DNA of 64,000 bases from Bacteroidia bacterium. GTDB taxonomy: Bacteria; Bacteroidota; Bacteroidia; UKL13-3. Where the stretch lies: positions 20,287 to 84,286 of the forward strand of contig JAKLJI010000009.1 in assembly GCA_023151275.1 (NCBI GenBank), in the 5' to 3' direction. The stretch's first letter is position 1. Every line of letters starts with the position of its first letter. Positions 1 to 48,600 of the stretch are shown here, piece by piece. A program made the position numbers and the translations under genes. The notes under the pieces are model-generated. The model searched no databases and was not told the origin of the DNA. It was given only the letters and a program-made list of their open reading frames with translations.

Positions 1-363
1 ACGTCAAATTTATTCTTATCTACGTACTGCTAATTTTAGTGGCTCCAAAGAAAATAAGCCAATAGTAAGGACTCTTAATATCGAACATCTTCAAAACTAT
101 CACTAATCCGTTCAACAATTTGATTTTAAAATCCACAATTAAATGATCCATCCGCCTTGTTTTGGGCTTCCTTAATGTCCCTCAAATCAGCAAAAACCAA
201 GCCTCTTTCAATCAAACCTTAATTGATTAGTAAGTCTTTTTTTTGGATGGCCTTATTGACTCACAATATCATTGAATATAGAGGTAAATCGCAATTGCAT
301 TGCTCGCAAGGGTCGCTTTTTTTATGCCTTTTCCTATCTTTTCAGCATTCCAATTTTATACCT

Positions 364-798
364 ATGAGTTCAGACACAGTGCGCAATACGCAGGCGAGGC
401 CTTTTGCTCAGGCTTATTTTCATGGTACCAAGGCCAATTTATTGCCGGGTGATTTTATTCGTCCGGGTTATGCTTCCAATTACGGTAAGCAACAAGCTGC
501 TTCGTATATCTTTTTGAGTTCCACTCTGGATGCAGCTATCTGGGGTGCAGAATTGGCTCAAGGGGATGCCGCTCCCCGTATTTATGTGGTGGAAGCTACC
601 GGCGAATTGGAAAATGATCCTGACCTTACCGACAAGAAATTTCCGGGGAATCCTACGCAATCTTTCCGTTCCAAGGAGCCTTTTCGGGTTATTGCTGAAG
701 TGGTAAATTGGACTCCCCATGCAGAAGAATTAGTTCAAAACATGAAGGCACATCTGGCTCGCTTAAAGGAATCGGGAATCGAATCTTTGAATCAATGA
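364..798 (+). CDS. arr: NAD+--rifampin ADP-ribosyltransferase (Arr family)
   Basis: ORF 223..798 trimmed to the ATG at 364 (144 aa). FHGTKANLLPGDFI, YIFLSS, AAIWGAEL, IYVVEATGELENDPDLTDKKFPGNPTQSFRSKEPFRV align by eye over the full length with Arr-2 and mycobacterial Arr. Confidence 0.85.
   Translation: MSSDTVRNTQARPFAQAYFHGTKANLLPGDFIRPGYASNYGKQQAASYIFLSSTLDAAIWGAELAQGDAAPRIYVVEATGELENDPDLTDKKFPGNPTQSFRSKEPFRVIAEVVNWTPHAEELVQNMKAHLARLKESGIESLNQ
703..798 (+). repeat. Direct repeat copy 1 (functional 3-prime end of arr); partner at 2264..2359
   Basis: The 96-nt segment recurs in the same orientation at 2264..2359. The last 66 nt differ at 2 positions, both synonymous. The first 30 nt differ at about 7 positions. 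Confidence 0.9.
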
Positions 799-820
799 AT
801 ATGGAAGGGAAATTCATTGT

Positions 821-2206
821 TTATTGCTTTACTATTTTCCAATAGCCGCCTTTGTCGGGACCAATGCGTTCTATTAGTCCTTCATTTTTCAGATTAGCTA
901 TTTGTTTTTCTATACCCTTTATAGTTATTCCAATGTTTTCGCTTAGTTCAATTGTTGTCAGGTATGGATTCTTTTTCAACAGACCAATAATTTTCTCCCT
1001 ACTTTTCTCCCTACTTTTCTCCCTACTTTTTGCCGAACCTTTTTCTAAAACAAGTTGAGGTCTTTTAAGCATAACTGTAAAAATACCCTCCTTCTGAAAA
1101 ACCGGTTCAGGCAAACCTGTAACACGCATCAAATCGAGAATACGTCCAATTCCAGAACCTACTTGTTCAACCAAATGCATTCGAGCAAATAATCCAAAAA
1201 GTAAGGGATTTCGTGAGTGGCTGCGTTTCCCAAATTCAGATTCCGGAATTGCACTCACCAAACCACCGGGGTTACTGATTTCTACTCTATCGGAAAAAAC
1301 TTCGATATGTATAACAGCCCCTTTATCGTAGTAATCACGGTGGCAAAGAGCATTGATGATAGCTTCCTTGAAGACCGTTTCAGGAATTTCCCAGATTTCC
1401 TTTCTGGGGCCAGCTCCCTGGCCTTCAATATCGTAGCGCACATTCAATTTGCCTTTAAGCCATTGCATGGCTTGTTGGTATTGGTGATAAAGATTTCCGC
1501 CAAATGGTTTATCATCAATAATAAAGCGCTTATCTGTACCTTCAAAAGCAATGCAGCGAGTGATAGCTTTATCCAAAATAGCCTCAGGCTGTTTAGCAAA
1601 AAATAAAACTGAACCATTTTTAAAATGATTGTTTTCATTATAGAGCTTCAGGTTTTTGAATACCTGGTCAGTAGGAATTCCTCCACTGATATTGGATTCA
1701 GCCTTGAAAATAGAAATAAAATCCTCATCCACCATTGAATCAACCCTAAATTCCGGACAAGGGGATTCATCAAAATAAATCCTATCTGCCTGTTGAAAGA
1801 AATCCCGCATTTGCTCGGCAGTGGTAAGCTTTTGGGTATTAGGACCTATTCGCACATAAATAGCACCTGAAAGCACATAAGGCTTACTAGGACCTGAAGG
1901 TACTTCAATTGCACCAATGCTCATTCCATCCACTTGAATTATTGTAAATGAACAAGCCAAACGGGGAGTAATTTCATTCAAGCTGTTTTGGATGGCTGAT
2001 CTTTTTGCATTATCGATATCAACACCTTTGATTTCATTTTTATCATTAACCCCAATCAACAAAACGCCACCGGCAGCATTGGCAAAAGCACATACTTCTT
2101 CAGTTAGTTCTTTTACCTTGGCAGGCACCGACATTTTAAATTCGGCATTGTATCCCTCACCGGAAGAAACCAAAAGTTTAATATCATCGGCAGTAATCAT
2201 AATCAA
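821..2206 (-). CDS. AlbA_2/Schlafen-like (divergent AAA_4) + HATPase_c_4 (RecG C-terminal-like) + winged-HTH protein
   Basis: 461-aa ORF. The N-terminus EGYNAEFK...VCAFANAAGGVLLIGV is typical of the AlbA_2 domain. The central NALCHRDY...ISNPGG is typical of HATPase_c_4. The C-terminal LSENIGITIKGIEKQIANLKNEGLIERIG is wHTH-like. It is convergent with arr, with 22 nt between the stops. Confidence 0.75.
   Translation of the reverse strand: MIMITADDIKLLVSSGEGYNAEFKMSVPAKVKELTEEVCAFANAAGGVLLIGVNDKNEIKGVDIDNAKRSAIQNSLNEITPRLACSFTIIQVDGMSIGAIEVPSGPSKPYVLSGAIYVRIGPNTQKLTTAEQMRDFFQQADRIYFDESPCPEFRVDSMVDEDFISIFKAESNISGGIPTDQVFKNLKLYNENNHFKNGSVLFFAKQPEAILDKAITRCIAFEGTDKRFIIDDKPFGGNLYHQYQQAMQWLKGKLNVRYDIEGQGAGPRKEIWEIPETVFKEAIINALCHRDYYDKGAVIHIEVFSDRVEISNPGGLVSAIPESEFGKRSHSRNPLLFGLFARMHLVEQVGSGIGRILDLMRVTGLPEPVFQKEGIFTVMLKRPQLVLEKGSAKSREKSREKSREKIIGLLKKNPYLTTIELSENIGITIKGIEKQIANLKNEGLIERIGPDKGGYWKIVKQ
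991..1030. repeat. Tandem 12-mer (ttttctccctac) x3.3 inside the AlbA_2 gene
   Basis: Read directly from the sequence. It encodes (SREK)3 in the linker before the wHTH. Confidence 0.9.
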
Positions 2207-2263
2207 AATTAAGGATTAAGAATCAAGACTTAAACTTCTAAAATATCAGGAAGTAAAACAGGC

Positions 2264-2359
2264 GTGAATTGGACTCCGCAAGCAGAAGCAGTGGTTCAAA
2301 ACATGAAGGCACATCTGGCTCGCTTGAAGGAATCGGGAATTGAATCTTTGAATCAATGA
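2264..2359 (+). pseudogene. Orphan arr 3-prime remnant (31 codons plus stop, no 5-prime part)
   Basis: It translates in frame to VNWTPQAEAVVQNMKAHLARLKESGIESLNQ*, compared with VNWTPHAEELVQNMKAHLARLKESGIESLNQ* in the intact arr. Homology ends exactly at the stop codon. Confidence 0.85.
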
Positions 2360-2624
2360 GCAAAAAGATAATGCCTATTAGGGGCTGAGAGTGGTTGCGT
2401 TTTAATTCCAACACCTATTGAGTGGGTTATTAAATTAGGTCTTGAGGTCGGAAAATGGAAGCTTCAACTTGCAATTGGGTAATGGGTTATTTATACAATA
2501 AGTTGCCATTCATGGGTTTGAATTCATCAACCAGGCTTAGTCAAATCTTCCTAATTTTTGCCTTAACAATTCGCGCTACAAGTTTCCGTTGAGCTTATTG
2601 CCTAATTTCCCAACCCTTATTTGA

Positions 2625-3914
2625 ATGCCTATGAAACCTTTACTTGCTTATTTTTTAGTTGTCCTGAGTTTGTTTCCGCTTCAGTCAAGTGCATGCAGCA
2701 TGTACAAGTACACGGTTGCCGGAAAAACCTGGGTTGGTAACAATGAAGATAGCTGGGGAACCGACCCTATGATTTGGTTTGTGCCGAGAGATTCCAAGAA
2801 ACTTGGTCTGGTTTGTTTGGGCTATCAACGCAAATTCCCCAACCCGGATGGTGCGATGAATTCGGCAGGTCTTGCTTTTGATGCTTTTACCATGCCCCAT
2901 CGCAGCAACCTAGCGCAACGCAATCCTCAAATGGAGGACTTCAGCTACAGCAAACTTCAAACCATTATGCAAAGCTGCAAGACTGTGGAAGAGGTTTATC
3001 ACTACTTTCAAAACAAAAACTTGCAGGTTCTGAATGGGAGTGCACTCTTTCCGGGTAGCATGTTGTTGTTCGTTGACAAAAGTGGAAAATACCTGGTTGT
3101 GGAAGCCCATCAACTAAGCTTTGGAAATGAATCCAATTTTGCGTTGGCAAACTTTAGTTATGCAGATACCAAAGACAGGAGCTTGGTGAATATGGAACGT
3201 TACCGAAAAGGAATTTCGTTTATGAATCGCCATCTACCAGAAGCCACCCTTTCCTATGCAAAATTGCTTTCGGATACCATGTCTGTAAACCGAGAAAAGG
3301 CAGGTGATGGCACTTTATACACGAATTTATTTAATCTTGAAACGGGAGAAATTCACTTGTTTTTCTTCCATGATTTCAGCAAAAGAATAAGCTTCAAACT
3401 GGATGAGGAATTGGCCAAGGGTGCGCATCATCTTGCATTTAGCAATCTTTTTCCTGACAATTCTGGATTCAAGAAGTTTACTTCCTATCATACCCCGCAA
3501 ACACAGCGCTACATGTTCTACCTGCTGCTCTTGCTTGGAATCTTTTTGATTCTGTGCGCAATTCGATTGGCGAGTTATGCTACCAAAGCAAAACCAGTGT
3601 CCTATTCCATTTCCGTTTTGCTGTTTGCCCTATTTGGATTCCTAATGGGCATTTACTGCTTTATTCTGGTTCGCAATCCCGGCATTTGCTATTTCCCATC
3701 GCCTTATGAAGATGCGCATTCAGGGTTCGTAAGCAGTTTTAGTTACCTACCCTACCTAAGCATTCCGGTATGTGTAGCTTCGGCTTTCTTTGTATTCCAA
3801 TTCATCAAAACAAGTCCAATCAAAACAAGCTTCAAAGGGCTGTTGATTGGGAATCAAGTTTGCATTTTTGTGCTTTGCTGCCTTTTTATGTACTGGCGCT
3901 TATTGTCGTTTTGA
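2625..3914 (+). CDS. Ntn cysteine hydrolase (choloylglycine hydrolase / C45-C59-like) fused to a C-terminal multi-TM domain
   Basis: The signal peptide ends in SSAC. CSMYKYTVAGKTWVGNNEDSW resembles the N-terminal nucleophile Cys...GRNxD pattern of CBAH-type hydrolases. The last 140 aa or so contain 4-5 hydrophobic helices. Confidence 0.5.
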   Translation: MPMKPLLAYFLVVLSLFPLQSSACSMYKYTVAGKTWVGNNEDSWGTDPMIWFVPRDSKKLGLVCLGYQRKFPNPDGAMNSAGLAFDAFTMPHRSNLAQRNPQMEDFSYSKLQTIMQSCKTVEEVYHYFQNKNLQVLNGSALFPGSMLLFVDKSGKYLVVEAHQLSFGNESNFALANFSYADTKDRSLVNMERYRKGISFMNRHLPEATLSYAKLLSDTMSVNREKAGDGTLYTNLFNLETGEIHLFFFHDFSKRISFKLDEELAKGAHHLAFSNLFPDNSGFKKFTSYHTPQTQRYMFYLLLLLGIFLILCAIRLASYATKAKPVSYSISVLLFALFGFLMGIYCFILVRNPGICYFPSPYEDAHSGFVSSFSYLPYLSIPVCVASAFFVFQFIKTSPIKTSFKGLLIGNQVCIFVLCCLFMYWRLLSF

Positions 3915-3916
3915 AA

Positions 3917-3951
3917 ACACAATGCCCTCGCAAATTGCAAGGGCTTTGTGT
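3917..3951 (+). terminator. Strong hairpin just after the Ntn-hydrolase stop (terminator-like, weak T tract)
   Basis: acacaatgccct / agggctttgtgt forms an 11/12-bp stem with an 11-nt loop, starting 3 nt after the TGA at 3912..3914. Confidence 0.4.
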
Positions 3952-3970
3952 AAAATTTGACCATCTATTA

Positions 3971-4056
3971 CTGCCCAAAACGCCTGTGAAATTGGGTGTA
4001 AACTCAGTTTCCCTCACTCAACATAAGGGTACATTATGCCTCGCTCGTGATAAGCC
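3971..4056 (+). repeat. Dispersed intergenic repeat, copy 1 (partner 7086..7168)
   Basis: ctgcccaaaacgcctgtgaaattgggtgtaaactcagtttccc... aligns by eye at roughly three-quarters identity with 7086..7168. The 10-mer gaaattgggt is identical in both. Confidence 0.55.
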
Positions 4057-4114
4057 AATTCCTTTGGTCTTTTGGCCTTCATTACGAAGTTCAAATGCAT
4101 AATCCGGGTTAAAT

Positions 4115-4909
4115 TTATTTTCCTTTTCCGGGTTCGGAATCGATGAGAAATGGTGCATTCCCATCGGTGATGATCACTTTGCTATTCGGAGATTTGGCCA
4201 ATTCGGAGAAGGCTTCAATGCTGCGGATTTTGATAATCTCCTGGGTCAATCCTTCAGACAGAATTTTCTGTGCATCGCGGGTTCCTTTGGCTTGAATGAT
4301 TTTGCGCTCGGCTTCTAACTTTTCTTGTTGAAGGACAAACTCCATGCGCATGGCATCCTGTTCTGCTTGCAAGCGCGATTCAATCGACCGGGCTAGTCCT
4401 TCTGGTAATTGGATGCTTTTCATCAATACTGCTTCAATGATAATGCCTTGTTCCTGCAAGCCTTCCATCATTTTCTGACGTATCGCCTTTTCAATATCTG
4501 CGCGCATGCCCGAGTGCATGTCTTTGGCAAAAAACTTCGCACAAACATCGGCAGAGGCTGAACGAAACACACTGGAAATGATGGGCTCAAAATCCACCCC
4601 GTAATTTTGAATCAGCGAGGTTACCCGGGCTTTATCAATTTTATACAGAATCGAAATCTGCGAGATGATGCTCAAGCCTTCTTTACTGGGCAAGCTGAGT
4701 TGCATTTCCAGGTTATTGGTTTGGGTTGAAGTCTTAATCACCTTGGCCAAAAAGGGATTGAAGAAAATTACACCGGTGGATTTTACATCGTTGGAGAGCT
4801 TTCCTAGCTTTTGCTTTACGCCTACTTCTCCGGGACGGATAATGGCGCAGGAGCCGAGAAATAGAAAAGCAAAGCTGACACTGAATAAAGAAGCCATTTG
4901 TTTTTTCAT
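4115..4909 (-). CDS. SPFH/Band-7 (prohibitin-family) lipoprotein
   Basis: Lipobox LFLGSC. RPGEVGV...LSIISQISILYKI...EAVLMKSIQLP...ERKIIQAKG is typical of the SPFH domain. Confidence 0.85.
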   Translation of the reverse strand: MKKQMASLFSVSFAFLFLGSCAIIRPGEVGVKQKLGKLSNDVKSTGVIFFNPFLAKVIKTSTQTNNLEMQLSLPSKEGLSIISQISILYKIDKARVTSLIQNYGVDFEPIISSVFRSASADVCAKFFAKDMHSGMRADIEKAIRQKMMEGLQEQGIIIEAVLMKSIQLPEGLARSIESRLQAEQDAMRMEFVLQQEKLEAERKIIQAKGTRDAQKILSEGLTQEIIKIRSIEAFSELAKSPNSKVIITDGNAPFLIDSEPGKGK

Positions 4910-5053
4910 ACGGATTGGGGGTTTGATACATGTTAAACCCCGGAATCAGTAAATGGATTGAAAATAACTATCAGATTTGTGTCATTTCATAACACCTGGA
5001 ATCCTTCAACAAAAGGTTGATATTGTTTCTCAATTTACCTCGAAAATGGATTC

Positions 5054-5758
5054 CTAGGCGTGAAGAATGATATTCCCGTCTTTGATGGTATAGAAATCAG
5101 TGGATGCTGCTTGTCTCGCTTTGAAATAAGCGCTGTAATTTTCTGAAAATGTTCTTCGTTCCGTGATAATGGTATCGTACAATCCACTCAGTCCAATTAG
5201 CATTTCTGAGGCTTCACGGATGGCGAAATTTCCACTGTCGTGACCTGTAACATAATCTGCTAATTTATTCCCGACTACATACTTGCGGAATAGCGGATTC
5301 GCTTTCCGATTGATGAGAATGCGCAGACCACAGGCTTCGGCGATGCTCAAATCCAATACATCATCAAAGAAATAACATACCTCATTTAAGCCCAGTTTAT
5401 GCTGTTCACAAAAGTGATTCAAGGCGTTTATCTTATGCGGAATTTTGTAATACGAAGCATCAAAATGTTCACGCAGGCTAAAGTGAAAAGCCATTTCATT
5501 GCGCTCCCCTGAAATCAATGCTGCCTTTGGCATTTCGCCATGCTGGTGATAGTAGGTATAGCGAAGCAGGTTGGTACCCATTGAATCAGCTTCATTGAAG
5601 GTACTGCTTTTGTTTTCGTTCTTGATCGCATTGTTAAATACACCGTCCCAATCAAATACAAAGGCTTTAATTTGGCTGAGTCGGGATTGAATTTCGGAAG
5701 GGCTTGAAACAAACTCCCCTCCTATTTCTTCAAACAGTTGTTGGATTTCAGTATGCAT
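5054..5758 (-). CDS. HAD-superfamily phosphatase, KdsC-like (candidate Kdo-8-phosphate phosphatase)
   Basis: FDWDGVF (DxDG nucleophile motif), EADSMGTNLLR and FFDDVLDLSIAEACGL resemble the KdsC motifs. Start is set at the ATG at 5758 because 5759..5786 is a terminator hairpin. The TTG at 5791 is an alternative start. Confidence 0.55.
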   Translation of the reverse strand: MHTEIQQLFEEIGGEFVSSPSEIQSRLSQIKAFVFDWDGVFNNAIKNENKSSTFNEADSMGTNLLRYTYYHQHGEMPKAALISGERNEMAFHFSLREHFDASYYKIPHKINALNHFCEQHKLGLNEVCYFFDDVLDLSIAEACGLRILINRKANPLFRKYVVGNKLADYVTGHDSGNFAIREASEMLIGLSGLYDTIITERRTFSENYSAYFKARQAASTDFYTIKDGNIILHA

Positions 5759-5786
5759 AAAAAAGGCCGCTTCTTGAGAAGCGGCC
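5759..5786 (-). terminator. Rho-independent terminator/attenuator between the aldolase-CBS gene and the kdsC-like gene
   Basis: On the minus strand ggccgcttc-tcaa-gaagcggcc (9-bp GC-rich stem) is followed by TTTTTT, which runs directly into the ATG at 5758. Confidence 0.6.
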
Positions 5787-5806
5787 TGCAAGTTAGGCGA
5801 AATATC

Positions 5807-6817
5807 TTAGTCTTCGAGGTCCTGAATATCGAGCATACCCACCGGCTTGCCATTTTCAGTTACCAGAATGGTATCTACTTTGGTTGATTTAAACAGTCCG
5901 GCTGCATCGTTCAACAAGGCCGAAGATTCAATGGATACGGGAGTATTGTAAGTAAAGTCGCCCATGGATTTGCTCAACACATCGCGGCCTTCAGCCTGGA
6001 TTTTACGACGTAAGTCGCCATCGGTGAATACCCCTTTCAAAGAGCCGTCTGCATTCACAACCGTGATGGCTCCAAATCCGTATTCAGTCATTTTCACAAT
6101 GCCTTCTGCCAAAGAAACACCTGCGTCAATCACAGGATTGGTTCCATTCATGGCTTCTTTCACGCGAACAGTCATCAAACGGGTATCGCGAATGAATTGG
6201 TCTGTACCTACTGTGGTGAAATGATTTTCGGTTAACTGTTTTAAGATTTTCAATGGAACGGTAATGGTATGCACACCCAGGTTTAAGGCGTTGCGCACGT
6301 GCTCCATGGTACGAACAGAAGAGAACATTACTTTGGTATCGTACCCGTAATGGTCAACTGCACTTACAATCTGATTCACCAAATCAAGGGCATCATGACC
6401 TTGATCTTGCAAGCGACCCACCAATGGACAAACATAAGTAGCACCTGCATGCATGGCCATATAGGCTTGTTGCAAGGTATAAACCAAGTGTACATTTACC
6501 AGGTAGCCTTTGCTACGCAGTAAACGACAAGCACGCACACCTTCCAAAGAAACCGGAATTTTGAAAACGGTTTTCTTAGGGTCGAGGCCCAAAGCGAGTT
6601 GGCGTTCTGCTTCAGCCAACACTTCTTCGGCAGTATCTCCTAAAGCTTCAATCTGAAGCACAGGAACGATTTTTGAAAGTTTAACAATCATGGCATCGAT
6701 ATCGGTGATGCCTTCACGCTGCATGAAAGTAGGCGTGGTTGTAAGTCCGTTGAGGAAGCCCAGTTTAAAGCCTTCTTCAATTTCTTTGAGGTTGGCTGAG
6801 TCTAAGTATAATTCCAT
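5807..6817 (-). CDS. Fusion protein: fructose-6-phosphate-aldolase/TalC-type class I aldolase (N) + KdsD/GutQ-type CBS pair (C)
   Basis: The N-terminal 215 aa or so (MELYLDSANLKEI...GLTTTPT...FKIPVS..G..A...L...G...NVHLVY...A..A..AGA.YV.P.VGR) match the FSA/TalC pattern. The C-terminal 120 aa contain GVFTDGDLRR...GMLDIQDL, the hallmark of the arabinose-5-P isomerase CBS module. Confidence 0.75.
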   Translation of the reverse strand: MELYLDSANLKEIEEGFKLGFLNGLTTTPTFMQREGITDIDAMIVKLSKIVPVLQIEALGDTAEEVLAEAERQLALGLDPKKTVFKIPVSLEGVRACRLLRSKGYLVNVHLVYTLQQAYMAMHAGATYVCPLVGRLQDQGHDALDLVNQIVSAVDHYGYDTKVMFSSVRTMEHVRNALNLGVHTITVPLKILKQLTENHFTTVGTDQFIRDTRLMTVRVKEAMNGTNPVIDAGVSLAEGIVKMTEYGFGAITVVNADGSLKGVFTDGDLRRKIQAEGRDVLSKSMGDFTYNTPVSIESSALLNDAAGLFKSTKVDTILVTENGKPVGMLDIQDLED

Positions 6818-7200: not shown

Positions 7201-7236
7201 AAAAAAGAGAGAACCAAGCGGCTCTCTCTTTTTGTT
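7201..7236 (-). terminator. Rho-independent terminator after kdsA
   Basis: On the minus strand agagagagcc-gctt-ggttctctct (10 bp, one G-U) is followed by TTTTTT, 16 nt after the kdsA stop. Confidence 0.7.
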
Positions 7237-7251
7237 TAATTCATGCTAAAA

Positions 7252-8082
7252 TTACTTTCTGTATTTCACTTCAACCTGATGCAATTCAATCAATGGTTTG
7301 AGGAATTCTTCTAGGTCGTACACGCAAAGTTGTGAAGCTGCATCGCAAAGCGCTTTTGCAGGCTCAGGGTGTGTTTCGATGAAAACACCATCTACACCGG
7401 ATGCAATACCTGCGCGACTCAATACCGGCAAAAACTCACGTGCTCCGCCGTTGGGGTCGGCACTTGGAGTTCCGTATTTACGCACGCAATGGGTAACATC
7501 AAACACTACAGGATAGCCAATATTTCTTAAGTGGTAAAAGCTTCGCGGATCAACAATTAAATCGTTGTACCCAAAGGTAAATCCACGCTCAGTAAGAATT
7601 ACCTGGTCGTTACCGGATTCCACACATTTCGCAACCGGGTGTTTCATGTTTTCAGGAGCAAGGAATTGTCCGTGCTTGATGTTTACCACTTTACCTGTTT
7701 TTGCTGCTGCCACCATCAAGGTGCTTTGCATGCAGAGGTAAGCCGGAATTTGAATCACATCAACCACCTCACCCGCTGCTGTTGCCTGCTCGGGGTAATG
7801 CACATCGGTAAGGATAGGAAATCCAAATTGCTCACGAATTTTAGCAAGCAGTTTTACTCCTTTATCCAAACCCGGGCCATCGTAATATTTAAGGCTTGAG
7901 CGATTGTCTTTTTGAAAGGAGGATTTGTAAATCACTTTTATTTTCAAGCGTTCCGAAACCTCTTTCAGCATTTCAGCTGTTTTGAGCATGATGCTCTCGT
8001 CTTCGATAACGCAGGGCCCAGAAATCAGAAACAATTCATCTGAGCCACATTCAATATCTCCAACTTTTACAATTTTTGTCAT
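7252..8082 (-). CDS. kdsA: 3-deoxy-8-phosphooctulonate (Kdo-8-P) synthase, Cys-type (metal-dependent class)
   Basis: Full-length by-eye alignment to E. coli KdsA (KSSFQKDNRSS, GPGL, TDVH, DVIQIPA, FDVTH, GVFIETHP). It has GPCVIED where E. coli has GGMNVLE. Confidence 0.9.
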   Translation of the reverse strand: MTKIVKVGDIECGSDELFLISGPCVIEDESIMLKTAEMLKEVSERLKIKVIYKSSFQKDNRSSLKYYDGPGLDKGVKLLAKIREQFGFPILTDVHYPEQATAAGEVVDVIQIPAYLCMQSTLMVAAAKTGKVVNIKHGQFLAPENMKHPVAKCVESGNDQVILTERGFTFGYNDLIVDPRSFYHLRNIGYPVVFDVTHCVRKYGTPSADPNGGAREFLPVLSRAGIASGVDGVFIETHPEPAKALCDAASQLCVYDLEEFLKPLIELHQVEVKYRK

Positions 8083-8092
8083 GGTGTATTAA

Positions 8093-9175
8093 TTACATTC
8101 TTCTGAATAAACCTTCAATAAATTCAATGCTGATTTTCTCTTGCCAATCGGTTCCAATGGCATGGTTCCACATGTGGTGGAGGTTATACGCCACATGGGC
8201 CATGGCATTGATTTCAGCATCGCTCCAGTTTTTACTTAATCCGGTTGGTAGTACGATGTTATGCTTCTTCAACATGGTATTGAATTCAGCAACGCCTTCC
8301 GGGTAAAAATCACCCAAATGTTGGAAGGCCAAACAGTTTGCATAGCAATGCTTTTCGCCAAAAATCTTACTCAAGCCATAACTTAATGCATGACAAATAC
8401 CCACTTCCGAGTAGGTTAAACTTAGGCCACCCATTAAGGATGCCACCATCAATTTGTCATCGTTCTCCGGATTTTGACCAGCGTTTTCACCCAAGTAAAT
8501 ATCGCGACAAAGTTTGAGCGATTGTTCGCCATAGGCCATGGAATAGGCATTGTTCAAAATTCCATCGCGGCTTTCTATGCAATGGATGAAGGTATCCATA
8601 CCTGTATAAAACCATTTATCAACAGGTACGGTTGCCGTCAACTCCGAATCAAGAATAACCTGATCGAAAATGGTCCATTCGCATTTCAAACCAAGTTTCT
8701 TCTCGGGACCGGTTAAAACAGCAGTCATTGAACATTCTGCGCCGGTACCAGAGATAGTAGGAACTCCCACGTGGTAAACGCCAGGCTTCTTGATGAGGTT
8801 AAGTCCCTGGTAGTTTTGAGAAGGACCCTCATTGGTAAGCATAAGGGCAGTTGCCTTGGCAATGTCCATAATTGAACCACCGCCAATCCCAATTAAGCCG
8901 GAAGGCAAGCCTTTTGTAGCCAGGATTTCATCCCTCAATTGGTCAATTTGCTCGGTTGTAGGTTCATGTGGATCTACATCAATAAAATAGACCAAATCTT
9001 CAGGCTTTGCAGGAATTCGTTTTTCGAGGTCTTTGCCTTTGAAGTAATTATCAACCACAAACACCATAAAGCCTTGGTTGAGGCTACGTTTGGGCTGAAG
9101 GATTTCATCGAGTTGATTGAAGCTACCGCGACCGAAAACAGTTTTTTCGATGCTTTTAAAATTCTTGTGGATCAT
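8093..9175 (-). CDS. Iron-containing alcohol dehydrogenase family; candidate Kdo 8-oxidase (KdnB-like)
   Basis: GIGGGSIMDIAKA and His-rich CHALSYG motifs of the Fe-ADH fold are present. The gene sits 10 nt upstream of kdsA and 2 nt downstream of the aminotransferase. The KdnB assignment is by context only. Confidence 0.55.
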   Translation of the reverse strand: MIHKNFKSIEKTVFGRGSFNQLDEILQPKRSLNQGFMVFVVDNYFKGKDLEKRIPAKPEDLVYFIDVDPHEPTTEQIDQLRDEILATKGLPSGLIGIGGGSIMDIAKATALMLTNEGPSQNYQGLNLIKKPGVYHVGVPTISGTGAECSMTAVLTGPEKKLGLKCEWTIFDQVILDSELTATVPVDKWFYTGMDTFIHCIESRDGILNNAYSMAYGEQSLKLCRDIYLGENAGQNPENDDKLMVASLMGGLSLTYSEVGICHALSYGLSKIFGEKHCYANCLAFQHLGDFYPEGVAEFNTMLKKHNIVLPTGLSKNWSDAEINAMAHVAYNLHHMWNHAIGTDWQEKISIEFIEGLFRRM

Positions 9176-9177
9176 AG

Positions 9178-10383
9178 TTATGCGGTAACAGTTTGCGACT
9201 CTTTTATAGAGGCAGCAATTTTAGAAGTAAGTTCAGCAAGTTCAGCATCTGTCCAGCTGGCGCGGATACCAAACGAAATCAAACGGCCAATGGTTTCCTG
9301 CGTTTTTGGGATATTCAAGTTTGCATAATCCTGAGGTGCACCAAGGAGTTGCACGTTTGTTTTGGCAGCTACTCTACCCTCTTTGATATGATCCCATTGG
9401 TTGATGAAATGGTACATGTTGGTAAACCAGTAATTGAAACCGCCTACTCCATTTTTGTTCAAAGCAGCTACAACAGCCTGTGCAGATTGTGTATCCGGCA
9501 TCAGGATATTCAGGAAAGTGGCTGAGTCACCTGAAGGATCTGGAATGGTAGCAAAAGAAACGCCCGGGATTTTTCCCAATTCCTCCATCATGAACTTTTT
9601 ATGCTTGTTGTTGGCTTCGCGAATGGCAGGCACGCGGCGGGTTTGAGCCAAACCCACAGCAGCATGCAATTCTGAAATACGGAAATTGAAACCGAGCACC
9701 GGATGATTTTCCATACCGCGGTTGTTACCAATATGGTCGTGACCATGGTCTGCGAAGTTATCAGCCAGTTTGTAAGCAGTTTCGTCGTTGGTAACCATCA
9801 CACCACCTTCACCGGCAGTTGCAATTTTGAAGAAATCGAAGCTGTAGCAACCTGTTTTACCCCAAAGTCCGGTAGAAACCCCTTTGTAAGAAGCAGCCAT
9901 AGCCTGGCCTGCATCTTCAACCAAAACGAGATTGTGTTCATTGACAACAGCCATTATCTCATCCATATTTGCCATTTGACCGCACATGTGAACCAGGAGA
10001 ACGGCTTTGGTTTTTGGAGTGATTGCATTGCGAATTCCTTCTGCACTTAAACACAGGGTTTCATCTATTTCGGCGAATACAGGCAAAGCACCGGCAAAGA
10101 TTACTGCTTCAACAGAAGCTATGTATGTAAAAGGAGGAACAATTACCTCATCGCCTGCGCCAATTCCGGCGGCCGCCAAGGCACAAGAAACAGCAGTTGA
10201 ACCGGAGGAAACGGCATGGGCATATTTTGCGCCAACCAGTTTCGCCACTTCGGCCTCAAACTCGCGCGCTTTCCAGATATTGTTGCGCTGCGCATCGTGG
10301 TTATAACGAAACAGAATTCCTGTTTCCAATACATCATTGATTTCTTTGCGCTCTTCAGCGCCAAAATATTCGGTTCCTGGCAT
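9178..10383 (-). CDS. DegT/DnrJ/EryC1/StrS-family PLP aminotransferase; candidate Kdo8N transaminase (KdnA-like)
   Basis: SSGSTA, DEVIVPPFTY and SFDFFKIATAGEGG (PLP-lysine motif) are present. Start is set at the ATG at 10383 (MPGTEYFG); the TTG at 10401 is an alternative. The KdnA assignment is by context. Confidence 0.55.
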   Translation of the reverse strand: MPGTEYFGAEERKEINDVLETGILFRYNHDAQRNNIWKAREFEAEVAKLVGAKYAHAVSSGSTAVSCALAAAGIGAGDEVIVPPFTYIASVEAVIFAGALPVFAEIDETLCLSAEGIRNAITPKTKAVLLVHMCGQMANMDEIMAVVNEHNLVLVEDAGQAMAASYKGVSTGLWGKTGCYSFDFFKIATAGEGGVMVTNDETAYKLADNFADHGHDHIGNNRGMENHPVLGFNFRISELHAAVGLAQTRRVPAIREANNKHKKFMMEELGKIPGVSFATIPDPSGDSATFLNILMPDTQSAQAVVAALNKNGVGGFNYWFTNMYHFINQWDHIKEGRVAAKTNVQLLGAPQDYANLNIPKTQETIGRLISFGIRASWTDAELAELTSKIAASIKESQTVTA

Positions 10384-10593
10384 AATGCTAAATTTATGCA
10401 AAAGTACAAAAAGGCAATGGAAAAGCGGGAAACCTGTTTTATTCCCAAATCCGACAATAAATTCCCGTTTTGAAACGAATCCTTCAGTAGTTCAAACTGA
10501 AAAAAAGAATACAACATGTTAAAAATCAATATACTATAAAAAAAAAATTAATCAAGGAACAGGATTTGCACGTATCAATCAAAACCAAAAATC

Positions 10594-41570: not shown

Positions 41571-42635
41571 CTAAAAGCCTGGCGCCACTTTCGATTTATT
41601 AAAAACCGGACAAATCATTCTACCTCCGGAACCTTTTCCATTCAAGAAACTTCCTCCCGGACAATGGGCTTCCTTGCTTCGAAAAATCAAACCTATTTCA
41701 AAGGTATTTCCGGCATTGGTAAAGCTGCTATTTCCCAAAGAAGCTTCATAACTCAGGTAAAAATTCAACTGCTCACTGTGGTTGTATTGAATGGCAAATG
41801 TTGGAGAAACCAATTGAGCTTGAGGATGGAAGGAAGAACGAAGTCCAATACCCATACCCAACTCATCCATAAAAAAATAGTTAACCCGCATCATGCCATG
41901 GTTGGAAGCAAGCTGCCTATCGTACCGTCCGCTAAATTCCCAACTTTGCGCAATAGTTGCCGGATTTTTCCTTTTGATAAAGCTAAAATGCGCGGTGTAC
42001 CTTCGGGGAAGTATATAATTGCTTAAAATGCCAATATCCGAGTTATTGGTAATGTGATGAACAGCAAAACCCAAATTGAATGCACTCTTCGAACCATTTT
42101 TCCCATAAGCAAATCGGGTCAAATCAAAGCCGGCAGAAATATCCGGACTTAAGGATGAATTGATACGAGTTCCATCCATGGCACTGGGGTAAATGCTCCC
42201 AAAAATGGGATGAATCTGATCTGAAAAAACAAATTCATTCCAATCAATTGTTTGTTGAACAACACCAAATTGAAATCCGGCATTGGCTGTCCATTCACGG
42301 TTCAGAATTCGGCGAATTCCAAGTTGCAAGGCCGCATGATTGGTTTGAAAAAAGTTGTTGCCCTGTGTTTCATTTCCAGCAAGCATTCCCAATGCAAATA
42401 CGGAATTACACAAGCTGTAATCTGCCGCAAAAGAACTGTGATAACTTGGACCATGCAAAGGCTGAAACAAATTTCGGTGCATCAAACTGCTTCTGATTAT
42501 TCCGGAACCATCTCTACCAATCAAAGCAGGATTTAGATAGGCCTTGTGGGCATAACTATTGGTGTACAGAACATCCTGCGCCAAAACAGAAATGCACATC
42601 AACACGAAAAGTATAGCATTTAAAATTCCCTTCAT
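41571..42635 (-). CDS. T9SS membrane protein, PorP/SprF family
   Basis: Signal peptide followed by Y..NPALIG, which is typical of PorP/SprF. It is beta-rich and about 350 aa. The start overlaps the stop of the upstream adhesin (ATGA). Confidence 0.8.
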   Translation of the reverse strand: MKGILNAILFVLMCISVLAQDVLYTNSYAHKAYLNPALIGRDGSGIIRSSLMHRNLFQPLHGPSYHSSFAADYSLCNSVFALGMLAGNETQGNNFFQTNHAALQLGIRRILNREWTANAGFQFGVVQQTIDWNEFVFSDQIHPIFGSIYPSAMDGTRINSSLSPDISAGFDLTRFAYGKNGSKSAFNLGFAVHHITNNSDIGILSNYILPRRYTAHFSFIKRKNPATIAQSWEFSGRYDRQLASNHGMMRVNYFFMDELGMGIGLRSSFHPQAQLVSPTFAIQYNHSEQLNFYLSYEASLGNSSFTNAGNTFEIGLIFRSKEAHCPGGSFLNGKGSGGRMICPVFNKSKVAPGF

Positions 42636-45600
42636 CGTATCAATGTTAATGTGCCACGTTTGGATAAATTTTTGCCCTTATCGCCTTGTCCCAGCCACTG
42701 TTTTCCACTTGTGAATTCCGCCTCAATCATCCAAATATACGTTCCCTGAACGGCATCCTTACCATTCAAATCAACCCCATTCCAACCCTTGGCAGGAGTT
42801 CCATTTTCCAACTCCTGACTTTCCCAAACCAACTCTCCCCACTTGTTGTAAATCCAAATATGGTAATTCTTCAATTCCATGCCTGCTGGTTTAAATTCGC
42901 GCACAGCTTCAGTTCCATAAGAAGGTGCAAAGGCATTGGGAACATATAACCCTTCCCAATACGGAGGCAAGCAAACGGTGTCTGTGGCAAAAGTATCGCA
43001 GTTGTTCGGACTAATAACTTTCAACTCTACCGGAAAACAACCGCTATCTGCTTCAGCGTATCTAAACAACAATTCTTTTCCTAATCCGGTTGCTCCATTT
43101 CCAAAACGCCATTCATACCTAAAATCGTTATTGGCCAATACCTTGAATTGTACTTCACGGAAAGGTTGCTTGGTGATTTGCAATTCGTGACTAAAGGTGA
43201 TTGACTTCTTTTCATCAATTTTTATGGGTTTGAAAAACGTAAAACTATCCCGGCAAACCACACCTGATTTTACTACCAAACTCACATAATAAACTCCGCT
43301 TTGGGTATAGGTATGACTTGGTTCTCGTTGAGTTGATGTATCACCATCTCCAAAATACCAGAAAAACTCCTTGCCTCCGATACTGGTGTTTTTGAATTTA
43401 ATCTCATACGGTAAGCAGCCGCTCGAATCACTAAATTCGAATGAAGCAAAAGGCTGCTCCATAATCTCGAAGGTTTTGCTGAAGGTATCTCGGCATCCAA
43501 ATGCGTTCACAACACGCAACTGAACCGGATACTTTCCTATTCCCTGATAAAATTTCCTGTAAGTGGCGGCAGTGCTAGTTTCTCCATTACCAAAATCCCA
43601 CAAATAGGCATCGGCATTGCTTCCGGTAAAGGCAAAATCAACCCAAACAGGACCATAACAAGTGTCTTCCGGGCTCATGCTAAAGGATGCCATAGGTTGA
43701 GGCCACACCCTAAACTGAAGAGATGCAGAGTCTTTGCAACCAAAAGGTGTTTCAGCCCATGATTGAATGGTATAAACTCCAGGTTTAGTAAAAGCATAAC
43801 CATTGATTTGATTTCCTGTGTAGGTGCTTCCATCGCCCAAATCCCAGCGAATAACCGGCGAACCTTTGGCTTCAGCCCTGAAATTGGCCAACTGACCGAG
43901 ACAAATTGAATTGGTATCGGTAAATATTCTTAAATGAGGCAGTGAATCAACCTCGAGCGTATCCAAAATCTCGTTGCTGCAACCACTAAAAAATGCACTT
44001 AGCCGAACTAATATGGGCATTCGCCCTGCTCTGGTGTATTTGTGCAAAGGATTGAACAAACTGGATGAATCTCCATCGCCAAAAAACCACTTTATGCTTC
44101 CCGTATCAATAAGGTTGCTGGTAAATTGCAAGGACGTTCCTTCGCATTGATTTGAACTTGGCAATTGAATACTGAACAAAGGTTTTGGGTCAACGCGAAT
44201 AAACGTAACCGCAGTATCAAAATAACATTGGTTACTGATGTATTGCACAACCTTAAACAAACCCGGATTGGAGAAGGTATGCACAGGATTGCGCTGATTG
44301 GAGGTTCCGCCGTCCCCAAAATCCCAACTCACATAGTCAGCTCCCCGACTTTTATCTCCAAAATTCACAGTTAAACTCTGGCATCCCAATCTGGAACTTA
44401 CATTAAAGTCAGCTTTCAATAAATTTGGAGTTACCGTAAGCGTTCGCTGCACACTGTCAGAACCGCACATATTTGTAACCCTTAACTTAAGTAAATACCG
44501 GCTAATTGAATCCGATGTGAAATAGCTAATGGGTTGGCCGTTTGGCTCAACCAAATTGCTGGTGCGCCCTTTGTCTAAATCCCAGAAATACTGCTCAACA
44601 GATCCTTGAGAAATATTAGTCAAATACAATTCAGCAGGTGAACAAGCAGAATCCATATTCATGGTAAAACTTGCTTTTGGCTTGTCCTTTACTCGAACCA
44701 AATTGATTTTTTGTAAGGTATCACGACAACCAGAAATTGATTGAACAATCAACCTTACAGAATAACTGGTATCTTGGTTCAGCAGTCCAGCATAAGTATT
44801 TCCAACCGTATCACTTGCAACCAAAGCTTGATTTCCATCTCCAAAATTCCAGAAAAATGTTCCCGGCTTTCGGAAAACGGATTGCTCTCTAAAAACAAAC
44901 CGGGCTGGGCGACACAAACTATCTGATAAACTCACAAAATCAATCGTGGGAGTTGGCAAAGAGCGTATTTCTTTTACAAGGGTATCGAAGCAGCCTTCCG
45001 CATTTTGCGCAATTAATTGAATCTGATAGACACTGTCTAGTAATCCACTGTGAACTGGCAGTTGGATTTGCGGCACAATAGCCAATGAATTATCGAATCC
45101 AACAAATGGGTCATCAGAACTCCAGGAATAGCCTAAAGCAAACTGACTGTTGTTTTGAACGGCCAATTTTGTGCCGGAACAGGCGCTATCAGACAAAAAA
45201 CCAAAGCTTACCAATGGTCGTCCGGGTTGACGAAGGGTTTTGCTAATGCTATCCACACAACCAAAAGTAGAGGTAGCAATCAGGCGAACTTCATGTACCA
45301 AACTTTGATTGCTTTTAAAATCATTCAAGGAAAGGGAGGTTTGAAAACTCGCGGTATCGTTTTGAATAAAGCCTGCATTTCCAACCAACATCCATTTATT
45401 GCCATCAGGCTTCATGGCAGGCAAAGGAAGTCCGCCAGCAAACAGCAATGCTGATTCTCCATAACACAGAACAGAATCACTAATTGCAAAATCAGGCTTA
45501 GGCAATGGTTTGATTACTACATTTTTTTGGATTGAATCCGAGCAGCCCGTACCTATCAACGTAATCTTCAATTGTACCAAAACACTGGTGTCCGTAGTCC

Positions 45601-48600
45601 CGGTATTCACAAATGTTTTTATTGGGCTGATCAGGTTTGATGTATCCCAAACATTGCCAAATGTCCATTTAAAATCAACTCCACTACTTGGGAAAGAACT
45701 ATTTAAAAACCTCACCTGCTGACCTGCACAAGCAACTGAATCCGGACTAGTGAATAGTGGGATTGGATTTGGTATTGTTTGATACCAGTAGCTTTGTGTA
45801 TCCGATTTGCAGTTGCTTGGGCTAAAGGCAATCAAGCTGATTTTGAAACTGTCGTTGGCATTCGGAAAAGTATAACCTGAGAAGCTTAATCCGCTTGAAT
45901 AGTTTACCCCATTCAATTGCCACAAATAACTTGCATTGGCTTGTGGATACCCTACTGCCACCAAGGCAGAGTTGCTGATAACAAAGGGGGCACAGGAAAT
46001 CTGCATTCCGGGACTAAACTCCGCTCGTGCATCCGGTTTAATCTTGATGCTTTTGAAAACCGTATCGCTACACCCAAATGATGAAGTAGCTATCAGCTGG
46101 ATAGCATACATACTATCAACTACACCCGAATTGGTAAACACTCGAAAAGGATTAATCGTGGTATCAGGAGTACTTTCATGACTAAAAGTCCAACGAAACT
46201 TCAGGCTACTAAAGCTTTCAGCGGTGTTGGTCTGAGAGCTGTTTGAAAAATTTATCGTATATGGGCTGCATGAACTATCTGCACCGCCAAGGCTAAAGGC
46301 TGCACTTGGCTTTGGTCTCAAGTTCATCTGGATAGTATCTCTATTGCTGCAATTGTTGGTATCGGTATATTGATAAACTAAACTAACACTTGAACTTCCT
46401 GCTTGCAAAGGATCAAATTGATTGGCATTAACGCCTGGGCCCGACCAATTGCCGCCAAGCGGAGTTCCTCCATTTAGGTTAATTGGCAAATTATTTCCGC
46501 ACAATTCCTGGTCAACACCTGCATTGACAATTGGAAAGGGATTCACCTTGACCAAAACAGTATCGGTTGAAAAGCAGCCTTTAATATCGGTATAGGTGTA
46601 AACAAAAGAATAAGTTCCAACTCCTTGAACAGATGGATTAAAACTATTCAACCCAATAATTCCTGTTCCGGCCCAACTTCCACCTGCAGGATTTCCGGCC
46701 AACTGAAAAAGCCCATCGTTCGTACATTTATTCAAATCAGCCCCCGCATTCACAACCGGGTTGGCAAGAATTACAACGGTATCCGTGTTACTTATTGAAG
46801 GTGGACTCGACAAACAGTTACCTGAATATACCAATCTTCTGAAAAGGGTACTTGAAGTGAGCAGGCCTGCAGAATAATCCTTCAAGCTATCATTTCCACC
46901 TGCCGATATCCAATTGGTACCATCCCATTTTTGCCAACGAAACAGGTACAATCCACTTCCACCGGCTGGCGAATTCCCACTAATAACTGGTGCCAATGAT
47001 CCTTGGCAAACCTCGGCAGTAACAGAAATTTCATTATCCTGAACAGCTGGTAAAACTGCTACTTTCAAGGTTATTGAATCTCCAATACAATTGGTTGCAT
47101 CGTGTCTGGTTACCACCCGGAAATAAACCGTATCAATACCAGAGTTAGAGTTTACTGGGGTTAAGGTGATTAGAGAATCCGTGGAAAACCCACGCGAGCT
47201 GTAGCCTATTAAACCAGTTCCTGAAAATGCTCTCCATGCATATGAAACTCCAGAACCTATACTATTGCCCAACAATAGTTGCACATTGGAGCCTGAACAA
47301 ACAGGCGAACCAGGTGAACTCCCGCTGGCAAAGGGCTTCGGCAAAATTGTAATTCGTTGGGTATCGGCTTTTGATTGACCGCAAAAATTATTCAAGGTTA
47401 ATATAATTGAATAGGTTTTGGCCACATTGTCTTTTTCAAAAAACACAACCGGATTCCTACTTGATGCATTGCCTTGAACAAAACTGAATCCTGCCGGAAT
47501 AATTTGCCAGTTAAACGCATTCAATGAACTTCCTGCACTATCAATAATCGGTGTAAAGGCCGAAGCTCCAGAATTAAAGGCAATTGTCTGACTATCACAA
47601 AAAGTTTGCGCCAATGGCATTCCAACAATTGGAGCAGATGGCATGGAAAAAACAGTATCCTTTTGTGAGGCGCCACAGCGATTGCTCACTTGAAGCCGGA
47701 TTCCATACCTACCGGTCTTTTTTATTCTAAGCAAACCTTGCACCGAATCTTGACTGTTTTGTTCAAAACTGAAAACCGTTGTATCGGTTGTCATTGCGAT
47801 ACCATTGCTATCCAATACCGTCCACCGGTAACTTACCGGCCCACACATGGAAACGGTATTTGATGTATTGATAAGACTAATCAAATTAGGAGCACACTTG
47901 CTGGATGGCGAAAACCCGAGTTGAAAACTTGCAGCAGGAGGCCCTTGCACACAAACATTTCTGGTGATTGAATCAACCCCGCAAGGATTGCTGGATGCCA
48001 ACTTTACCGGAAACAAACCAGGATTTGCGTAGGTGAGTGAAGGAGGAATACTCTGAGTGCTACTGCTAATACTTGCCCCGCTAAATGTCCAATTCCACAA
48101 GGTTGCGTTTGTACAACCTATTCCATAAAAACCAGATGTAGTGGTATTGCTTAAAGTAACCGGTACCCCAACACAAAGCGGAGAATCAGGTGGTGGACCA
48201 AAGTTTGATGCAGGCTTTGTCCAAATCCGGAAATTACCAAGTGTTGCGGGAATGCTGTCACATTGATTATGTGCCTTGGCTGTTACAATAAACGACCCGT
48301 TTGTTTTGTTACAAGAATTCGTGGTAAATGTATGCCAAACCGTATCCGACACTGGGTTATCGATGCGCAACAAGGGCGAGCCATCATTAAAATCAAACGT
48401 ATAATAGGTACCTGCAGAATTGGTTTGATAATTTCCCATGATTAGGGGATAAGTAAATGGAGCACAGCCCTGCTTAACAGGTGGTCCACTTAAGCTTAAT
48501 GTGGGTGCGCTTTGATTGCTCACATCAATGGTATCTCGGCTGACACATCCGTTATTATTCGTTACAACTGCAATTAATTTGTAAGCACCAATGGACGTGT

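Follow-up and report, generated by a model that had tools for sequence, protein, structure and literature searches.

What does an aldolase do when it carries the regulatory domains of a sugar-phosphate isomerase and sits where that isomerase would be expected? This question is raised by a gene at 5807..6817 on the minus strand of a 64,000-nucleotide stretch of DNA from a Bacteroidia bacterium (contig JAKLJI010000009.1; the whole 64-kb stretch is called the window hereafter), which encodes a fusion of a transaldolase-like barrel to a CBS pair and adjoins kdsA, the gene for 3-deoxy-8-phosphooctulonate (KDO8P) synthase. A sugar called 3-deoxy-D-manno-octulosonate (Kdo) is indispensable to the outer membrane in the majority of Gram-negative bacteria, and making cytidine monophosphate-Kdo (CMP-Kdo) takes four steps, catalyzed by KdsD, KdsA, KdsC and KdsB. 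To our knowledge, KdsD is treated as the sole source of the arabinose-5-phosphate (A5P) precursor, and as a drug target. The comparisons reported here suggest that the fusion protein probably supplies A5P to KdsA. The best explanation of the observations as a whole, in which we place about even confidence, is that it is the first enzyme of a KdsD-independent CMP-Kdo pathway (here one for 8-amino-3,8-dideoxy-manno-octulosonate, Kdo8N), an aldolase giving A5P to KDO8P synthase.

The fusion gene is an intact open reading frame of 336 aa with an ATG start and a stop codon at 5807-5809. Residues 1-212 (6182..6817, minus strand) form a TalC-like class I aldolase barrel of the His110/Cys130/Leu132 clade described below, and residues 216-336 (5810..6172, minus strand) form a CBS pair of the KdsD/KpsF type with the motifs GVFTDGDLRR and GMLDIQDL. 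The Pfam family TAL_FSA (PF00923) matched residues 3-201 with an E-value of 5e-35 and 121.6 bits against a cut-off of 27, the NCBIfam model fsa_talC_mipB covered residues 1-211, and two Pfam CBS stretches were found from residue 219 onward (E 1.3e-13). The best matches of the barrel among Protein Data Bank (PDB) sequences were TalC-type enzymes (3r8r at 4.7e-38, then 1vpx and 3s0c), with the fructose-6-phosphate aldolase (FSA) of E. coli, 1l6w, giving a weaker match of 6e-16. An AlphaFold2 model of the fusion had a mean pLDDT of 92.2 and a pTM of 0.70, and in a Foldseek search its barrel aligned with 1vpx, 3s0c and 3r8r at target TM-scores of 0.92-0.95, an rmsd of 1.4 A and 32-34% identity. 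No top-ranked PDB match in that search covered both domains; the listed ones align only with the barrel of about 210-220 residues. By score, fold and catalytic lysine, the fusion is a member of the transaldolase/FSA superfamily.

The C-terminal part resembles a different family. Residues 215-329 correspond to positions 153-267 of the 268 positions in the KpsF model TIGR00393 (E 1e-16), which are the C-terminal CBS part of KpsF, and the best solved-structure matches were CBS pairs of arabinose-5-phosphate isomerases (4o9k at 2.7e-13, followed by 3k2v and 3fna). The fusion scored below the cut-offs of both TIGR00393 (61.3 bits against 203.7) and the KdsD equivalog (48 bits against 505), and no SIS domain was found in it with Pfam or NCBIfam. 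The protein is thus not a KdsD, being without a SIS domain, though the CBS pair and the gene position are common to both. An assembly artefact was considered as the origin of the fusion and was ruled out, because about 4000 database proteins match it and same-length homologues number in the thousands; the 120 best matches all share the length and architecture of the fusion. The names of these homologues are generic ('transaldolase family protein', 'CBS domain-containing protein', 'TalC/MipB family'). Among 1.84 billion cluster representatives, a search identified about 17 clusters of full-length fusions, 29-58% identical to the query. An earlier note on this DNA, made from its letters alone, had described an aldolase joined to a KdsD-like CBS pair and knew of no characterized example; both domains are confirmed by these matches, and a literature search likewise found no paper on the TAL_FSA+CBS architecture or on a link between kdsA and transaldolases. 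The fusion may be an undescribed way to make a key precursor of a cell-envelope sugar.

The active site of the barrel is neither that of FSA nor that of an ordinary TalC. Thirteen signature positions were compared (6, 28, 57, 86, 108, 110, 130, 132, 134, 135, 166, 167 and 169), with residues numbered as in the Thermoplasma acidophilum transaldolase for positions 86-169 and with Glu57 equivalent to its Glu60. Canonical TalC reads D N E K N T S F G R A S R over these positions and FSA-type proteins read D N Q K L/T T A Y N/G R A S K/R, whereas D T/N E K N H C L G R S S R is the reading for the window protein and for all full-length fusions at 16 genome loci. Asp6, Glu57, Lys86, Asn108, Arg135, Ser167 and Arg169 are thus conserved in the window barrel. 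Four changes from TalC are found throughout the clade (Thr110 to His, Ser130 to Cys, Phe132 to Leu and Ala166 to Ser), and Asn28 is replaced by Thr in the branch of the window protein. Of the TalC residue set around the catalytic water (Glu60, Thr110, Ser130 and Phe132) only the glutamate is kept, the other three being His, Cys and Leu. The FSA set (the acid/base residues Gln59 and Tyr131, together with Ala129) is absent, with Glu57, Leu132 and Cys130 in its place; the signature of E. coli FsaA agrees with those of FSA-type database matches such as P0237 and P0269. The protein also fell short of the FSA equivalog TIGR00875, with 159.4 bits against a cut-off of 245.95. An identity as an ordinary FSA was ruled out by these defining residues and by the score. 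The earlier description of the barrel as FSA/TalC-type therefore stands as far as the TAL_FSA family goes and fails for the FSA type, on account of Glu57 in place of Gln, Leu132 in place of Tyr and the score below TIGR00875.

Genuine stand-alone proteins, about 215 aa long, carry the His110/Cys130/Leu132 signature as well. In a neighbor-joining tree, all 112 signature sequences (112/112) fell in one clade of 120 leaves, of which the other 8 were near-variants, and no canonical TalC was found within it. Fused and stand-alone forms were interleaved in this clade. These sequence relationships indicate that the barrel belongs to a distinct clade marked by His110, Cys130 and Leu132.

The evidence that ties this clade to Kdo comes from its gene neighborhoods. 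In the window the gene order is kdnA-kdnB-kdsA-[fusion]-kdsC-like, all on the minus strand, with kdsA at 7252..8082 (NF003543, 348 bits against a cut-off of 242). The KdsA protein matched 6mdy (5.5e-76) and 1fwn (about 1e-75) in the PDB and bears the motif KDNRS. A locus search that was seeded with an alignment of 6 sequences and took one genome per species found 17 fusion loci, 16 of them full length and one (L016) cut by a contig end. Their hosts are Bacteroidota of the Flavobacteriales, Bacteroidales, Cytophagales and Marinilabiliales, including the cultured Plebeiibacterium marinum D04, as well as Gammaproteobacteria known from metagenome-assembled genomes (MAGs) and Desulfobacterales. A metagenome scan seeded with stand-alone forms added 80 further loci of the clade. 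When the count was restricted to loci flanked on each side by 1.5 kb or more, KDO8P synthase was encoded within 1.5 kb of the clade aldolase in 12 of 13 genome loci and 43 of 43 metagenome loci (55/56 altogether), compared with 0 of 11 loci of ordinary TalC. K[A/D]NR[S/T] is present in every partner synthase whose alignment covered the motif region, and we take it to be the KANRS motif by which KDO8P synthases select A5P.

Other genes of the pathway recur with them. KdsB, a KdsC-like HAD-family phosphatase, WaaA, GT9-family heptosyltransferases and KdnA/KdnB were recurrent neighbors, the HAD family lying downstream of the fusion in many loci, and therefore every step of CMP-Kdo synthesis except KdsD is represented in these clusters. 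A second type of context consists of long one-directional glycan operons with cytidylyltransferase, short-chain dehydrogenase/reductase (SDR), epimerase and radical SAM/SPASM genes. Stand-alone aldolases without CBS domains adjoin kdsA as tightly as the fusions do, so the association with kdsA does not depend on the CBS pair. The KdsD-type regulatory module to which the earlier note gave weight is thus present in the fusion and is not required for its company with kdsA. Two further arrangements were seen among these loci. In the Gammaproteobacteria MAG loci L012 and L013, two waaA paralogues flank the kdsA-fusion pair, and in L014 only the upstream copy was detected. In loci L105-L120 and L172, on marine and other metagenome contigs, a stand-alone aldolase, kdsA and a divergent cytidylyltransferase lie in long one-directional operons that also hold radical SAM/SPASM genes, methyltransferases and several families without a Pfam match (about 403, 417 and 106 aa), and the product of these operons may be a modified Kdo-like sugar.

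The position of the gene is equivalent to that of kdsD. The order kdsB-kdsA-kdsD(SIS+CBS)-kdsC was found in L033 and L049 (Omnitrophota), and the order kdsB-kdsA-[aldolase+CBS]-HAD in L094, L136, L137, L150 and also L174. Because the two orders match, the barrel stands at the position of the SIS domain, before the same type of CBS pair. These parallel orders in other phyla bear out the earlier proposal that the fusion, between kdsA and a kdsC-like gene, occupies the kdsD slot. A SIS query matched none of 97 aldolase loci, whereas it matched 49 of 49 canonical kdsD loci used as a positive control. Within the 64-kb window no SIS domain was found, including by tblastn with the SIS query, and neither a second KpsF-type CBS pair nor a second transaldolase, kdsB or waaA was found there. 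Since the SIS domain is replaced by the barrel, any chemistry that gives A5P must differ from that of KdsD. One locus brings the two canonical genes together: in L018, from a MAG of the Myxococcota, a canonical talC (Thr110/Phe132) and a canonical kdsD (SIS+CBS) lie divergently side by side at 4199-5855, perhaps by chance or perhaps as a clue to the way in which the two domains were first united.

From these observations on the domains, the signature, the clade, the gene neighborhood and the position shared with kdsD, we infer as follows which substrate is used, which way the reaction runs and how it is regulated. A class I aldolase barrel derived from transaldolase would deliver A5P to the adjacent KDO8P synthase. 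D-Fructose is D-arabino-hexulose, so that A5P is fructose 6-phosphate (F6P) minus C1, with the same configuration and the same spacing from carbonyl to phosphate. Given this likeness, A5P could be bound to Lys86 as a Schiff base, its phosphate presumably held by Arg135, Ser167 and Arg169. The bond formed or cleaved would be C2-C3 of A5P, the equivalent of C3-C4 in F6P, and the reaction would interconvert glycolaldehyde plus glyceraldehyde 3-phosphate (G3P) with A5P; by analogy with FSA we favor this chemistry, tentatively and with rather less confidence than the supply of A5P itself. His110, beside Glu57, could take over the proton transfer performed by Tyr131 in FSA and so turn a transferase into a lyase. 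The CBS pair would have been inherited from KdsD and keep a feedback role, probably sensing a nucleotide-sugar such as CMP-Kdo. There is precedent for the reaction: E. coli FsaA makes A5P from glycolaldehyde and G3P (PMC9947464, PMC7767278), with glycolaldehyde as the donor (PMC7767278), as the earlier note had stated in part, and FSA is the only enzyme known to do so (PMC9947464). In FSA the residue at 129/130 governs affinity for the F6P/dihydroxyacetone part of the substrate, and the Ala129Ser change raises the efficiency with F6P about 20-fold; the physiological role of FSA has been called enigmatic (PMC7767278).

Several points weigh against this proposal. No obvious source of glycolaldehyde was found among the recurrent neighbors (radical SAM/SPASM, SDR, epimerase, cytidylyltransferase, GT9 and proteins of no assigned family), and we know of no abundant source of it in the cell, which makes a flux on the scale of Kdo synthesis through free glycolaldehyde questionable. 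The placement of residues 110, 130 and 132 at the pocket for the C1-hydroxymethyl group of F6P and at the catalytic water is our assumption from TalB, TacTAL and FSA structures. Binding of CMP-Kdo by the CBS pairs of KdsD is likewise assumed, and a literature search on it found nothing. The SIS search of the window spans 64 kb only, and in E. coli kdsD is not near kdsA. Finally, the fusion is solitary in one close relative (L017), and in another (L081) it is accompanied by the HAD, kdnB and kdnA genes only and not by kdsA.

One sub-branch of the fusion family has taken a separate course. Four fusion clusters (P0124, P0126, P0133 and P0145; loci L167, L169 and L170) have lost Asp6, Lys86, Arg135 and Arg169 and keep a well conserved KdsD-type CBS pair. 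The three with readable flanks (P0124, P0126 and P0133) follow a Peptidase_M61 gene and are not beside kdsA, and P0145 lies on a 1.4-kb contig with no informative neighbor. A phosphodiesterase gene also precedes two of those three. The sub-branch looks like a pseudo-enzyme with a new role. By contrast, those members of the clade that are linked to kdsA show no variation at the catalytic Lys, Asp and Glu or at the phosphate site.

The genomic evidence for supply of A5P would apply equally if the protein made A5P by other means, from a pentose phosphate and without free glycolaldehyde, a possibility to which we give a minor share of our confidence. Ribose 5-phosphate could be epimerized at C2 by way of an aldimine/enamine between its C1 and Lys86, in which a proton is removed and put back or in which retro-aldol cleavage is followed by re-addition while the site keeps hold of both fragments; alternatively, ribulose 5-phosphate could be isomerized through an enediol by Glu57, His110 and Lys86, in the manner of triosephosphate isomerase. 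Such a route needs no glycolaldehyde source, and none is encoded in the clusters, and the change of Thr110 to His makes just such a Glu/His/Lys constellation. The TalB variant F178Y gives ribose 5-phosphate as a by-product from glycolaldehyde and G3P (PMC9947464), so the scaffold tolerates both configurations at C2. However, the full set for aldol cleavage is kept (Asp6, Glu57, Lys86 and Asn108), which is best fitted by a true aldolase, and an isomerase would have to act without a Schiff base, yet Lys86 is invariant. We also know of no epimerase or isomerase precedent in the transaldolase family. A Schiff-base ketose-aldose isomerization of ribulose 5-phosphate was considered and ruled out, because the route through the C2 ketone is a Heyns-type dead end that yields no free A5P.

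The main rival is a different role altogether, that of an accessory transaldolase or F6P aldolase isozyme that balances the pools of sugar phosphates such as G3P, F6P and pentose phosphates under CMP-Kdo-type CBS control, while an ordinary KdsD of the SIS type, encoded at another place, would provide A5P. Among solved structures, genuine transaldolases are the nearest relatives, Glu57 is transaldolase-like, and in L018 a canonical talC does stand divergently beside a canonical kdsD. The absence of kdsD also applies at the scale of the window and the loci, and a SIS-only isomerase without CBS, such as that known from Bacteroides, would escape searches based on CBS domains. Still, we think this role unlikely, since ordinary TalC lay beside kdsA in 0 of 11 loci against the 55 of 56 for this clade, three conserved residues that define transaldolase/FSA chemistry are changed, and the kdsD slot is held in compact four-gene cassettes, including those from MAGs labelled archaeal; a pool-balancing enzyme has no obvious reason to accompany kdsA across phyla. 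Least probable, and in our view very improbable, is that the protein does not make the substrate of KdsA at all. It could instead work further along the pathway or in a salvage role, for instance by breaking down excess A5P or a sugar phosphate resembling Kdo, or be mainly a regulatory or scaffolding partner of KdsA with a CBS sensor. The degenerate sub-branch, which lost the lysine and the phosphate site and kept the CBS pair, indicates that a non-catalytic life of the protein is possible. That sub-branch is no longer near kdsA, however, whereas all kdsA-linked members keep every catalytic residue, and barrels without any CBS pair are linked to kdsA equally tightly. Comparative genomics thus partly supports the earlier interpretation: it strengthens the idea of an A5P-supplying aldolase and corrects the description of the enzyme as FSA-like, the place of the CBS pair, which is optional, and the nature of the cluster.

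That cluster is predicted from its gene content to belong to a Kdo8N pathway. Upstream of kdsA lie a kdnB-like gene for a Kdo 8-oxidase of the iron-dependent alcohol dehydrogenase family (8093..9175, minus strand; PDB 5k8c, E 1.2e-126) and a kdnA-like gene for 8-amino-3,8-dideoxy-manno-octulosonate transaminase (9178..10401, minus strand; PDB 5k8b, E 1.8e-136), and it is because close homologues of both KdnB and KdnA adjoin kdsA that a Kdo8N pathway is predicted. The earlier note recognized kdsA and the kdsC-like gene correctly and passed over both KdnB and KdnA and the stand-alone relatives of the barrel. Homologues of KdnA and KdnB were seen again in loci of the Flavobacteriales, Cytophagales and Marinilabiliales (L001, L003, L004 and L009-L011). 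Kdo8N has been described as a hallmark of Shewanella (PMC6357163), and the presence of these homologues in Bacteroidota predicts lipopolysaccharide with Kdo8N well beyond that genus.

The fusion gene is bracketed by terminator-like hairpins in the window organism. One hairpin with a T-run, read from the sequence, directly follows kdsA (7201..7230, minus strand), and about 380 bp of non-coding sequence separate it from the fusion gene; the 435-bp gap between kdsA and the fusion gene yielded no credible Rfam match. The other, found by a consensus scan, has 10 pairs followed by a T-run and lies between the fusion and phosphatase genes (5764..5787, minus strand). The downstream gene (5054..5758, minus strand) encodes a HAD phosphatase that is a distant member of the KdsC/YrbI family, 234 aa long from the ATG at 5758; it scored 38 bits on the NCBIfam KdsC model, below the cut-off, and its PDB matches were all of the KdsC/YrbI type. 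The mechanically called reading frame begins at a TTG at 5791 and would cross the strong hairpin at 5787-5764, and the ATG at 5758, used by gene callers on identical contigs (234 aa in L084), is the more plausible start. At the edge of the cluster, the gene content of window positions 1-4100 differs from that of positions 13400-21000 in L084 and L085 beyond a Band_7 gene; those loci carry genes for an Arr-type rifampin ADP-ribosyltransferase, a WYL protein and N6-methyltransferases there, and their fusion proteins are identical or near-identical to that of the window, which points to strain-level variation. Elsewhere in the window, a very long open reading frame of 2264 aa occupies 42632-49426 on the minus strand.

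The clade reaches beyond these phyla. A profile search drew proteins from Spirochaetales, by name only, and from MAGs labelled Helarchaeota, Thermoplasmatota and Pacearchaeota, and loci were available from the last three groups (L173, L174 from GCA_038740425.1, and L172, respectively). The contexts in these contigs, whose archaeal assignment rests on MAG binning, were KdsB-KdsA-[aldolase+CBS]-HAD, aldolase-KdsA-KdsB, and HAD-Capsule_synth-KdsB-methyltransferase-[aldolase+CBS]-KdsA, in which the Capsule_synth protein is KpsC/KpsS-like. These loci suggest either Kdo-type sugars in archaeal surface glycans or mis-binning. Overall there is an evenly balanced case for a second, KdsD-independent entry into Kdo synthesis, in which the clade displaced the SIS domain, sometimes kept the CBS pair, and spread in a self-sufficient CMP-Kdo cassette with kdsA, kdsB and kdsC across bacterial phyla and possibly to Archaea. 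If this is true, pathway reconstructions would change, as carrier genomes would otherwise be scored as lacking a step, and KdsD inhibitors would have no target in lineages that rely on the aldolase. It would account, too, for the ability of a compact CMP-Kdo cassette to work after transfer into hosts without KdsD, including the MAGs labelled archaeal. Furthermore, it would give a natural context to an aldolase activity so far used only in synthetic pathways of glycolaldehyde assimilation, and a first physiological role to FSA-like A5P aldolase chemistry.

When compared with known systems, the window locus agrees in part with each of four and departs from all of them. TalC-type enzymes of subfamily 4 (3r8r from Bacillus subtilis, 1vpx from Thermotoga maritima and 3s0c from Thermoplasma acidophilum), whose transaldolase reaction passes a dihydroxyacetone unit between ketose and aldose phosphates such as F6P, S7P, G3P and E4P, share with the fusion the fold and length of the barrel, the Schiff-base Lys86, Asp6, Glu57(60), Asn108 and the phosphate site of Arg135, Ser167 and Arg169, but they have neither a C-terminal CBS pair nor a kdsA neighbor. 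E. coli FsaA/FsaB (1l6w) belong to the same family, and the reaction proposed here is the A5P reaction of FSA; however, FSA has Gln59, Leu107, Ala129 and Tyr131 where the window protein has Glu57, Asn108, Cys130 and Leu132, and we know of no link of FSA to Kdo genes. The Kdo8N pathway of Shewanella has its counterpart in the genes upstream of kdsA, which are close homologues of KdnB (5k8c) and KdnA (5k8b), although the window host is a member of the Bacteroidota and Shewanella presumably uses a normal KdsD. KdsD, KpsF and GutQ have in common with the fusion the C-terminal CBS pair with GxFTDGDLRR, the slot in kdsB-kdsA-X-kdsC clusters and, as proposed here, the product A5P, but their catalytic domain is a SIS domain and that of the fusion is a transaldolase-type barrel.

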